IMG/VR virus record: IMGVR_UViG_3300042387_002391
Strand: one strand, 5' to 3'
Length of the DNA: 64,000 bases
Source of the DNA: a virus
The stretch's first letter is position 1, and each line of letters opens with the position of its first letter. The position numbers and the translations under genes were made by a program. This document shows, piece after piece, positions 61,192 through 64,000 of the stretch. Under the pieces are notes generated by a model, which worked only from the letters and a program-made list of their open reading frames with translations, had not been told where the DNA came from and searched no databases.

Positions 61192-61812
61192 TTATTTAAT
61201 GGCGTTCAGATTATTTTTCTTCTTTCTAATCATATTAAATTGATTAAATTGAAAATCCGCAGTAGTTTCAAGAATTTCTCCGTCTCTATAAGAATAGTTA
61301 ATTCCTCTCAAATTTGTAATAAAAGCATTGTGATAAACAAATTCGACAACAGTTTCATTATATTCATTCAGTGCAAGAATTGAAAAAGTGGTTTGATATT
61401 CATTAACCATTCCGCTTTCCATGCTTGCTGCAGCAGTCATCAAAGCTCCTGGTGTTCCATCATAAATACTCAAGCGCGGATCATTCAAAACAGCAAGCCA
61501 TCTCCACAACACATAATAATTTTTATAATCATTATCAACAACAAAGTTAACAGAAATTGGGGGATGGTTTGGACGATGGTGTGAAGAAAAGTTCAGTGTC
61601 TGACCGACCCAATCTACTTCCACGGCTGGTACAGTAATGTCTGGCACAATTGTTCCGTGAACACTAATTTGCACAGAATCAATATCTAAGTCTGGATCGG
61701 TTTTGCTCATCTCTCTTAAAATCTTCGGAAGAGTTAAGACAAGAATAAACTTATCCTTCGAAGCAACGTTCAAAGGAGACTGGAGTGTTGGATTTTGGCA
61801 AATTTCAGACAT
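61192..61812 (-). CDS. gp3-like tail completion protein (tube-like fold)
   Basis: VPDITVP, VNFVVDNDYKNY..LWRWL, ADFQF. Confidence 0.65.
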   Translation of the reverse strand: MSEICQNPTLQSPLNVASKDKFILVLTLPKILREMSKTDPDLDIDSVQISVHGTIVPDITVPAVEVDWVGQTLNFSSHHRPNHPPISVNFVVDNDYKNYYVLWRWLAVLNDPRLSIYDGTPGALMTAAASMESGMVNEYQTTFSILALNEYNETVVEFVYHNAFITNLRGINYSYRDGEILETTADFQFNQFNMIRKKKNNLNAIK

Positions 61813-63775
61813 CTTGGTTGTAATATGTGTATCCCATTTCTAGGAGCGATTCTTCATCTAAATCATACTTATCAAGAGTTTCAAGTTCTTTCTGAGTAAT
61901 TCCGAGAGCTGGATATGCAAGATTTTCTTCAGCAGCTGGTTTCGGAACAACTGAAGGATTTTTACTAAGATCTTTCAAATCATAATTTTCTGTAAAGTTT
62001 TCCCAGTAACCATTCGGAACAATTTTTAAAGGATGGTTCTGTAAGTCAAAATCTACAATCTGAAAGTATTGTTCGACTATTTCGGTTTTGAGAATGAATA
62101 AAGCCCAAGTAAGAGCCATAATTCTATCGTCGAAGAATTTATCTGTTCTTTTTTTATAAACGCCATTTGGATGTTTCACAAATGTTTCAAACTCAGAAAT
62201 TGTTTGCGGGTCGTTTATTTGTACGCATTGCAAATGATTTACCCAATATCTCATATTTCCAATTCCGTCACTTCTGATATTTGTATGAGAAAGTACTCCA
62301 AGATTTCTTGTTGTATTGTATTTGTCTGAAGTAGATATTTTTGAATATGCAACAATTTTTTCGTAATTGTGATGATAATGCAGAGCATCAATAACTTGGG
62401 CACCGCAATTGTTTCTTTCAATCAGTATTGGAGGCACACCCCAAGATTGTCCGATTGTTAGCAGTTTATTTGCAAAGTGGTATGGTTCAATAACTGCTGA
62501 ACCGTATACAGCCACTTGCTGAATGTTTTGAAGATCCGTTACATCAAGAATTTGAGCAACAGATGCTGCTCTTCCAATACCTTCTCCAACGTCTACTCCG
62601 ATTACATAAAGTTTATTCTTATCGGGATATTCAAAGACGCTGTAGTCACCTTCTTCTGAAGTCCAAATCGGAGGCTTTTTAGTTTGTTTAAATCTTTCTA
62701 TGAGAAGTGCTCCAACTGCTGAGGTGGAGTCGTCAAGGAAGCAATTATGAACTAGCACGCCGTTTGCATAGTAACAAGAACCATCAACACTTATGAGATC
62801 ATATACCCATCTTTTTTGTTTGATCTTTTTTATGTTAGTAATCTTTTGCAGTTCTCCTCGCTCTCCTTCTAAAAAATCTCCTACGCTTAGCGAATCAGCT
62901 ATCTTGAGTTCTCCTTCTACGATAAACGGATGCTTTAGTGACGCAACTATTTTTGTTCTGTCTGTTGTAAACTCTAAAACATTTTTCTTGAGTCTCTGAA
63001 CTCCTTTAAATGAACGAAGTCCCCAAGGTGTAGACACTTTTAAATTTTTGTCGTTAATAGCTACATTTTCTGAGAGCAATTCTTTAAAAAGATCGTATAA
63101 GTCTCGGATTTTATAAAATTTTGAATCTCCTTCGTTGCTTATGTAAACTTGTGACGAACCTCCTACGCAATTGTTAAATTCTTGCAAGAACTTTTCTTCT
63201 GATCCGAGAGCAGCAATCATTGTCTCTTTCCATGCTTGATCTCTTCCAGGAACTTCCCACCAATCAATTCTTTCTGCTTTCCAAGGCGGATTTAAGTTCT
63301 GTTCAGCCTGTGAATATATTTCGTAAAATTTATTTCCGACTCCCTGTGGCGTACTCACCAGTAATATTTTAGACTTTTTGCCAGACGAAATTGTAGGAAT
63401 AACCGATGACCAAAATTCTTCAAGCAAGTGTGTATTGTGATGGAGAACTCCGTTTGAGTAAAACATCCGACTAGGCACATCAACAATATCATACACAAAA
63501 TCTTTGTTTTTCAGCTTTTCTTTTGCAATAACTTTATCGAGACCACTCTTTGTTTGAATAATTCTATTCTTGCAATTTCTAACAAGCAAACTATCGCCCT
63601 TTTTGTCTATTAGTGAATGGTTTGCTGACGCTTTAAATGTTAAGCCAGATCTCGTTGTAATTTTATAAATGGACTTTGGTCGGTATTTGGCAACACCTTT
63701 AAAAACTTCCCATCCATTAGGCGTTTCTATTTTTATGCCTTTTGTATTTGGTTTAAACTCAATTAAATCCTTCAT
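61805..63775 (-). CDS. terL: Terminase large subunit, C-terminal part (IntC + ATPase C-half + mini-intein + nuclease)
   Basis: PTISSG..SKILLVSTPQG, IDWWEVPGRD, QEF, GVDVGEG, IERNN, DDRIMAL. Confidence 0.92.
   Translation of the reverse strand: MKDLIEFKPNTKGIKIETPNGWEVFKGVAKYRPKSIYKITTRSGLTFKASANHSLIDKKGDSLLVRNCKNRIIQTKSGLDKVIAKEKLKNKDFVYDIVDVPSRMFYSNGVLHHNTHLLEEFWSSVIPTISSGKKSKILLVSTPQGVGNKFYEIYSQAEQNLNPPWKAERIDWWEVPGRDQAWKETMIAALGSEEKFLQEFNNCVGGSSQVYISNEGDSKFYKIRDLYDLFKELLSENVAINDKNLKVSTPWGLRSFKGVQRLKKNVLEFTTDRTKIVASLKHPFIVEGELKIADSLSVGDFLEGERGELQKITNIKKIKQKRWVYDLISVDGSCYYANGVLVHNCFLDDSTSAVGALLIERFKQTKKPPIWTSEEGDYSVFEYPDKNKLYVIGVDVGEGIGRAASVAQILDVTDLQNIQQVAVYGSAVIEPYHFANKLLTIGQSWGVPPILIERNNCGAQVIDALHYHHNYEKIVAYSKISTSDKYNTTRNLGVLSHTNIRSDGIGNMRYWVNHLQCVQINDPQTISEFETFVKHPNGVYKKRTDKFFDDRIMALTWALFILKTEIVEQYFQIVDFDLQNHPLKIVPNGYWENFTENYDLKDLSKNPSVVPKPAAEENLAYPALGITQKELETLDKYDLDEESLLEMGYTYYNQDV
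62744..63169 (-). mobile_element. Contiguous mini-intein (142 aa, no endonuclease)
   Basis: QEFNN/CVGGSS...SLKHPF...VYDL...YYANGVLVHN/CFLD. Confidence 0.9.
63434..63775 (-). mobile_element. C-fragment (114 aa) of an atypically split intein, Thr at +1
   Basis: MKDLIEFKPNTKGIKIETPNGW...SANH...VYDIV...FYSNGVLHHN/T. Confidence 0.88.
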
Positions 63776-64000
63776 AATTGATTATATAACTCATCTATGG
63801 TTGAAGAAACAATTTGATTTTCAGAGTTCATCAGATTAATTTTTGAGTCTCCTTGGAGACACTCTATGAACGCACATTCGTCAACCATGACGCAATTATG
63901 CGCTTGCAAACCGTTTGCAAAAAAGTGATGGTGCTCTGTCTCAATTACATCAAAAACTTCTGTTAGTTTATTCTTAGAAATTTCTTCAATCGAAATTATT
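63772..64000 (-). CDS. terL: Terminase large subunit, N-terminal part (start outside the window)
   Basis: Manual translation ...FFANGLQAHN CVMVDECAFIE CLQGDSKINL...ELYNQL*; Walker B VMVDE. Confidence 0.88.
   Translation of the reverse strand, partial: IISIEEISKNKLTEVFDVIETEHHHFFANGLQAHNCVMVDECAFIECLQGDSKINLMNSENQIVSSTIDELYNQL
63775..63861 (-). mobile_element. N-fragment (29 aa) of the atypically split intein
   Basis: CLQGDSKINLMNSENQIVSSTIDELYNQL, then TGA overlapping the IntC ATG. Confidence 0.88.
63895..64000 (-). mobile_element. C-terminal end of a third intein
   Basis: IISIEEI...VFDVIETEHHHFFANGLQAHN/C. Confidence 0.85.

Follow-up and report, generated by a model that had tools for sequence, protein, structure and literature searches.

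A predicted naturally split intein five residues past the Walker B glutamate in the large terminase of a freshwater T4-like phage

We analyzed a stretch of viral DNA of 64,000 nucleotides (IMG/VR record IMGVR_UViG_3300042387_002391; hereafter, the window), which comes from an uncultured T4-like phage of fresh water (a lake). Read on the minus strand, the final 2.2 kb of this DNA code for a large terminase (TerL) similar to T4 gp17, of which the C-terminal two thirds are present; the tail tube and tail sheath genes follow it. Our principal conclusion, to which we assign a probability of about 0.85, is that this terminase contains a naturally split class-1 intein, with an atypical break of the S2 type directly after helix α1, which would join the pieces of TerL in trans, that is, by functional trans-splicing; the case is built from sequence comparison and a structural model of a relative.

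The two intein halves are encoded in overlapping genes on the minus strand. The open reading frame (ORF) at the end of the window reads ...FFANGLQAHN/CVMVDECAFIE/CLQGDSKINLMNSENQIVSSTIDELYNQL-TGA (here and below, a slash outside parentheses marks a splice junction), where CLQGDSKINLMNSENQIVSSTIDELYNQL is the N-terminal intein fragment, IntN, of 29 amino acids (63775..63861; Cys1 codon, 63859-63861). The TGA of the IntN gene (63772-63774) is overlapped by the ATG (63773-63775) of the gene for the C-terminal fragment, IntC, giving an ATGA stop/start overlap (TTATGAAGG; 63772..63775) and placing IntC in the -1 frame with respect to IntN. IntC (63434..63775) consists of 114 amino acids, ends with VLHHN and is followed by the C-extein nucleophile, Thr+1 (63431..63433), the first residue of THLLEEFWSSVIPTISSG. 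A preliminary description of this DNA, made by a model from the letters and a list of ORFs, had reported the 29-amino-acid IntN, the TGA/ATG overlap, the 114-amino-acid IntC and the HHN/Thr boundary, and it is accurate to the base in each of these details.

IntC contains the motifs SANH53 (block B; His53, 63617-63619), VYD96 (block F; Asp96, 63488-63490) and HH113N114 (block G; His113-Asn114, 63434-63439), so that the locus combines the features of a class-1 intein: Cys1, blocks B, F and G, Thr+1, a HINT fold and the restoration of the host sequence upon removal. In a phmmer search, IntC matched CatC (PDB 6dsl_B) with E = 1.9e-8, query residue 6 falling opposite chain residue 9, and showed ~35% identity to the AceL-type sequences; further matches were to gp41-1 and then VidaL. 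An AlphaFold2 model, computed from a 29-row alignment for L002, a contiguous, 41%-identical relative and not for the two chains of the window, reached a pLDDT of 90 and a pTM of 0.85, and the top Foldseek matches of this model were all inteins (E down to 2.8e-9), the best being VidaL. The break in the window maps to the loop that follows helix 30-40, the only internal part of the model with low confidence. Searches against Pfam and PHROGs gave no match for IntC (the Intein_splicing and PT-HINT Pfam matches of the 656-amino-acid ORF that starts with IntC belong to a contiguous intein farther along, intein 3), and a phmmer search of PDB with IntN together with the 11-residue extein that precedes it gave no match.

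This micro-extein, CVMVDECAFIE (63862..63894, minus strand), carries the Walker B motif (VMVDE) and aligns with Y253-P261 (IDECAFIP) of T4 gp17. By alignment to 3ezk, the insertion site corresponds to P261/N262 of T4 gp17, five residues past the catalytic Glu256 of Walker B, which in T4 gp17 comprises D255 and E256; we denote this site Walker B+5. Excision yields DECAFIE-THLLEEFW, to be compared with DEAAFIE-SHLLEEFW in intein-less alleles and IDECAFIPN--FHDSW in T4 gp17, in agreement with the proposal of the preliminary description that splicing restores a normal gp17 sequence. To place the site relative to the known split inteins of terminases, we fetched 80 natural loci of the AceL/GOS-TerL type, with 78 CatC residues as the query. 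These loci read ...QQFKVEFE/C(L/V)(S/G)GDT...(D/S)LY.R(I/L/M)-stop, followed by M(F/Y)K...SHN/CEFLGS, which bears out the earlier statement that AceL-TerL and Cat use EFE/CEF with Cys at +1; at the position of the window intein, they are uninterrupted (LDEFAFIPNHIAEQFF; LDEFAFIPNH). The split intein in the window therefore occupies a different site, as had been claimed. The site is previously uncharacterized in the literature that we compared.

The Walker B+5 intein is not confined to the window. A search of 5.8 billion proteins recovered ~25 clusters with an intein at this site (46-99% identity), 23 of the 25 starting at the IntC methionine and two being contiguous; a scan of metagenomic contigs with a junction-centered alignment yielded a single, weak locus. 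The block-B His, the block-F Asp, the terminal His-Asn and Thr+1 are invariant in the 25 clusters, even at ~46% identity, in contrast to the other parts of the intein, which diverge. The +1 residue, identified as Thr in the preliminary description, is indeed Thr in 25 of 25 intein-bearing clusters, and S, Q, A or P in the intein-less alleles, whose empty sites read DEAA(F/H)IE/(S/Q/A/P)H, including one DEAAFIE/SHLLEEFW. IntN varies from 28 to 38 amino acids in the family and begins with Cys1 throughout, that is, in seven of seven distinct IntN sequences from nine loci (the window, L143 and L144 share one) and in the three contiguous forms (L002, P0004 and P0013). The spacing of the halves varies as well: a 110-nt spacer with stops separates them in L003, and an ORF lies between the IntN and IntC genes in L139 (398 amino acids), L140 (183), L141 (121) and L142 (391).

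In the window, IntN has four acidic residues and one basic residue (net -3), and IntC has 23 Lys and Arg residues against 11 Asp and Glu residues (net +12). We considered charge complementarity as a property of the family and rejected it, given that the net charge of IntN is positive in L139, L140 and L142. The fragments of Cat-type inteins are reported to associate mainly via hydrophobic contacts (PMC11766414, PMC11923092).

The ORFs located between the halves in L139, L140 and L142, the three that were scanned against PHROGs, match PHROG 15427, annotated as 'endonuclease' (E from 1e-20 to 1e-25). Pfam matches to TnsA_N (PD-(D/E)XK) with 23-25 bits were obtained for L140, L141 and L142, and matches to NUMOD3 for L139, L140 and L142, all of them below the Pfam cut-offs; the 121-amino-acid ORF of L141 looks truncated. 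Judging from these matches, L139-L142 display the fractured-gene arrangement of Dassa et al. 2009 (PMC2677866), and the window appears to be its endonuclease-less state. The most likely source of the split would then be the entry and subsequent loss of an endonuclease: a free-standing gene (PHROG 15427, PD-(D/E)XK/TnsA_N-like, with NUMOD3) would have entered the loop after α1, breaking the intein, and would later have been lost in the lineage of the window, leaving the halves abutting.

We also placed 26 terminase inteins in a maximum-likelihood tree, which is unrooted and leaves some forks open; in it, the inteins group by insertion site. The Walker B+5 group is the sister of a clade (98/95) that consists of the contiguous inteins of the site of intein 3 and the AceL-type inteins, and together these are separated (97/93) from the inteins of the P-loop and those that precede Walker B. 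The contiguous L002 and P0004 are nested among split forms, and P0013 falls outside the Walker B+5 group, on a long branch.

An alternative that has to be considered is that the intein is a contiguous mini-intein of 143 amino acids, the split being only apparent, through a one-base sequencing or assembly error. The halves do abut with a single-base frame offset, and contiguous versions exist in three relatives (L002, P0004 and P0013). However, Logan contigs from three independent freshwater studies span 63772-63775 with 0 gaps (X4 record 9, X5 record 17 and X7 record 21), and zero insertions or deletions are reported anywhere in these contigs between 62500 and 64000; the junction region that the preliminary description had singled out for confirmation (63770-63780) is thus crossed without indels. 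The TTATGAAGG junction is identical in two more assemblies with 99% identity (L143 from ENA and L144 from Logan), L001, with 74% identity, has the same ATGA overlap, and other relatives contain the stop-containing 110-nt spacer (L003) or a whole gene between the halves (four relatives). The three-study contigs, the two further assemblies and the relatives with a spacer or an intervening gene exclude a sequencing frameshift, and this alternative is effectively refuted. It is also conceivable that programmed -1 frameshifting at TTATGA joins the halves during translation, the product being a contiguous intein spliced in cis. Since the IntC gene is read in the -1 frame and its start overlaps the stop of the IntN gene, a -1 shift would produce ...NQL-MKDL... 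with no residue lost. We looked for an X XXY YYZ slippery heptamer at the junction and found none, and ATGA overlaps turned out to be the commonest junction of adjacent long ORFs in the window (11 of 70 pairs), so that the overlap shows an ordinary two-cistron organization; these overlaps indicate pervasive translational coupling in the phage. Furthermore, the family works with 110 nt or a gene of 0.4-1.2 kb separating the halves, which means that association in trans must work and that recoding is inapplicable to most of the family. We consider programmed frameshifting very improbable. Of the two arguments for a real split in the preliminary description, ATGA coupling and charge complementarity, the former reflects nothing special and the latter does not extend to the family, whereas the split itself stands, on the strength of the assemblies and the family.

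A third alternative is that the intein halves no longer splice and that the TerL pieces associate non-covalently, with the intein remnants acting as a dimerization module, or else that the gene is decaying. There are precedents for fractured phage genes that lack inteins and function unspliced, such as the nrdA and gp43 examples cited by Dassa et al. (PMC2677866), and the splicing of the window intein is itself predicted from sequence. Against this stands the invariance of Cys1, the block-B His, the block-F Asp, the His-Asn pair and Thr+1 down to ~46% identity while the remainder of the intein diverges; moreover, an unexcised HINT domain of 143 amino acids located five residues from the catalytic Glu would hardly be tolerated (cf. 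PMC5050341 and TerL pentamers). Loss of splicing accordingly appears improbable. Several points do weigh against a split intein that splices in trans and originated as outlined above. Thr+1 is a poorer nucleophile than Cys, and the splicing activity is a prediction; among the runs listed as containing the locus, none is an RNA run. In the window and L001 only, where the genes overlap by ATGA, there is a slim chance of low-level -1 recoding into a contiguous intein. The order of events, insertion of a homing endonuclease gene (HEG) followed by its loss, could also have been the reverse, the tree being unrooted and partly open, with contiguous forms nested among the split ones.

For the trans-splicing intein that we favor, we infer the following course, from separate translation through fragment association to the splicing chemistry. 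The ATGA-overlapping cistrons would be translated separately, into one polypeptide that ends with Walker B and the 29-amino-acid IntN and another that starts with the 114-amino-acid IntC and continues with Thr+1. The short IntN would dock into the nearly complete IntC, completing the HINT fold. Cys1 would then form a thioester, and attack by the Thr+1 hydroxyl would produce a branched ester. Finally, cyclization of Asn114 and an O-to-N shift would yield DECAFIE-THLLEEFW (junction peptide AFIETHLLEEFW) and a complete ATPase.

To assess how widespread such inteins are, we compared the window IntC with 1.84 billion representative sequences using HMMER and obtained 312 matches, the best 150 of which (P0122-P0270) are the source of the following figures. 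In 100 of the 150, the intein HN lies at residue 95-140 from the start of the protein itself, and 97 of these 100 begin with Met. A separate count of the 91 matches whose alignment begins in the first 30 residues gave Thr at +1 in 33, Ser in 32, Cys in 25 and Val in one. From the junction contexts, at least five terminase sites can be recognized, namely, the P-loop GK/(S/T), a position before GK(S/T), C..DE before Walker B, TH..FW and CEFLG; the Walker B+5 family accounts for three representative clusters. One match, P0233, has Thr+1 at the AceL site (HN/TFLGSS). Inteins of Campylobacter phages of the CP220 type and of Vibrio VP-1 that resemble IntC were rejected as members of the family, the former being inserted at another site, in the P-loop (PRQ/C...HN/SSKS), and the latter at other sites as well, the P-loop and the AceL site.

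By these counts, split inteins with a long IntC appear to be common and diverse in metagenomic terminases. The literature that we compared names only four natural atypically split inteins: AceL-TerL and GOS-TerL, of the S2 type, and VidaL and PolB16, of the S1 type (PMC13014065); in nature, short-IntN split inteins are far more diverse than these four characterized examples. The pairing of Cys1 with Thr+1 is common among class-1 inteins (PMC11766414). Thr, Ser and Cys are all frequent at +1 in the long-IntC split inteins of metagenomic terminases, and there is no new mechanism here; of the 'new insertion site and chemistry' put forward in the preliminary description, the site holds up and the novelty of the chemistry is overstated, Thr+1 being present in many other metagenomic long-IntC split inteins. 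What is new is the insertion site and the +1 residue for this architecture, and the associated endonuclease is a different one; the mechanism is established. The suggested use as a ligation tool without Cys at +1 fares similarly: Thr+1 is confirmed, but Cys1 is still required, so that the intein is not a cysteine-less tool.

The split intein is one of several in this terminase. The window ends within intein 1, a contiguous intein whose C-terminal part (63895..64000, minus strand; ...FFANGLQAHN) is included and whose N-terminal part lies beyond the end; in the 99%-identical contig L143, intein 1 is complete, with 150 amino acids (SLN/CLTGD...QAHN/C). The micro-extein is thus shared by two inteins: intein 1 has it as its C-extein, and the split intein as its N-extein. 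A stretch of 11 residues between the C-terminus of a contiguous intein and the Cys1 of a split one is unusually short for an extein. On the other side, the extein THLLEEFW...LQEFNN (63170..63433, minus strand; 88 amino acids, aligned to residues ~262-354 of T4 gp17) is the ATPase subdomain with the STP coupling motif. It is followed by intein 3, contiguous and 142 amino acids long (62744..63169, minus strand; CVGGSS...VLVHN; Cys+1, 62741-62743), which is inserted at or adjoining the AceL-TerL site (QEFNN/CFLDD), matches CatC with E = 3.4e-11 and is the sister of the AceL-type inteins in the tree (98/95). The gene for the third TerL polypeptide (61805..63775, minus strand; 656 amino acids) encodes IntC, the 88-residue extein, intein 3 and the remaining ATPase and nuclease domains.

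Intein 3 is polymorphic. A contig from a lake metagenome joins 62740 to 63170 with TGT in between (ACA, that is, Thr, on the coding strand), a joint that removes exactly the 142-amino-acid intein and Cys+1, and P0002, 99% identical over the searched region, has no intein 3 (QEFNN-T-FLDDS). The intein before Walker B, which corresponds to intein 1 of the window, is broken at the same loop in some relatives (L001:633-2136, L004:1-1250, P0029, P0030, P0041 and P0051), in which fused ORFs of 802-941 amino acids begin with a long endonuclease-like region that continues in frame into the IntC-like part; the JGI annotation of P0029 and P0041 is 'very-short-patch-repair endonuclease'.

The complete TerL is available in the ENA contig L143 (L143:1218-6577), where it consists of three ORFs with four inteins. 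The first piece, of 254 amino acids, ends with RQVGK/C and a 32-amino-acid IntN; the second, of 388 amino acids, includes a 114-amino-acid IntC (HN/S), an extein, the 150-amino-acid intein 1, the 11-amino-acid Walker B extein and the 29-amino-acid IntN; and the third is the 656-amino-acid ORF. L143 thus contains a second split intein of the S2 type, in the P-loop, between the halves of which lies a 472-amino-acid ORF without a recognized family. The N-terminus of this TerL displays repeated GRPKG/GRP motifs.

Combining these observations, one can envisage a phage that builds one essential enzyme from three polypeptides, with one extein of just 11 residues, through two homologous split inteins of the S2 type (P-loop GK/S and Walker B+5 IE/T) and two cis inteins; the two split inteins, ~31% identical, would be a naturally evolved orthogonal short-IntN pair, and the family would switch repeatedly and reversibly, always at one loop, between being contiguous, being fractured by an HEG and being split without one. 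For this combined scenario as a whole, we see even odds. Were it true, S2 would be a second natural entry point of endonucleases into inteins, used at no fewer than five TerL sites. The locus and its relatives themselves indicate that the 'atypical' break is a recurrent point of endonuclease insertion across a whole clade of terminase inteins.

Because the mechanism is already established, what the locus offers is breadth and tools, not a new principle. Protein semisynthesis values atypically split inteins whose IntN is the size of a peptide, and the locus together with the ~25 clusters adds a family of S2-split candidates with an IntN of 28-38 amino acids that would leave Thr rather than Cys in the product. 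Within the Walker B+5 family, one can also compare alleles that are naturally contiguous, split or without the intein. Furthermore, it appears that a phage can tolerate a packaging ATPase assembled via several predicted splicing events around Walker B.

Among the known systems, VidaL and PolB16 OarG (PDB 6vgv and 8cpo) are likewise naturally split, with a very short IntN, but they are broken after β2 (S1), have an IntN of 15-16 amino acids and reside in other host proteins (PMC13014065). The mycobacteriophage intein TerL1-e (Kelley 2016, PMC5050341) resembles the window intein in its position, within or beside Walker B in the ATPase of a terminase, such that splicing is needed for the active site; unlike the split, class-1 intein in the gp17/Terminase_6-type protein of the window, it is contiguous, belongs to class 3 and is found in a terminase_1 protein. 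A further parallel is found in the fractured genes that Dassa et al. described in 2009 (PMC2677866), which include a freshwater phage locus from Lake Gatun with a broken gp17 gene, an 'unusual' break point and an IntC of 122 amino acids with all motifs except N1. That locus is probably the one later named GOS-TerL (Ser1/Cys+1). In contrast to the arrangement of Dassa et al., the window has no endonuclease gene between the halves, which overlap by 4 nt; an HEG-less state is reported in the same paper for one gp41 locus.

The closest relatives are AceL-TerL, GOS-TerL and the consensus Cat (PDB 6dsl; Thiel 2014, Bachmann & Mootz 2015 and Stevens 2018, as cited in PMC11766414 and PMC13014065). They share with the window intein the host, a phage TerL, a short IntN (25-37 amino acids, compared with 29) combined with an IntC of more than 100 amino acids, the class-1 motifs and sequence homology (the 1.9e-8 match at ~35% identity). 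The window IntN resembles natural AceL-type IntN (CLSGDT...(D/S)LY.R(L/I)-stop) in both length and pattern, and the break falls at the same aligned residue, after α1 (...DLY.R(L/I)-stop vs ...ELYNQL-stop in the window), that is, at S2, defined in the Mootz nomenclature as the break 'following α1' (PMC13014065). Many natural AceL-type loci also have a free-standing HEG between the halves, as do relatives of the window intein. It is usually a gene of 190 amino acids with GIY-YIG and NUMOD3 (for example, L058:2439-3008, and most of L060-L137), the GIY-YIG match scoring 30 bits in Pfam, above the cut-off; L099 and L121 are without it. The differences are that the HEG is of the GIY-YIG type there and of the PHROG 15427/TnsA_N-like type in the relatives of the window intein, with none in the window itself; that the +1 residue is Cys there, the atypically split inteins of TerL being described as Cys-dependent at +1 (PMC13014065), and Thr in the window; and that the window site lies ~93 T4 gp17 residues upstream (261/262 vs ~354/355), the AceL-equivalent site or its neighbor being occupied in the window by the contiguous intein 3. 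In the tree, the window intein belongs to a sister clade, outside the AceL clade. It would thus work like AceL-TerL and yet, by its position in the tree and in the terminase, falls outside that allele family.

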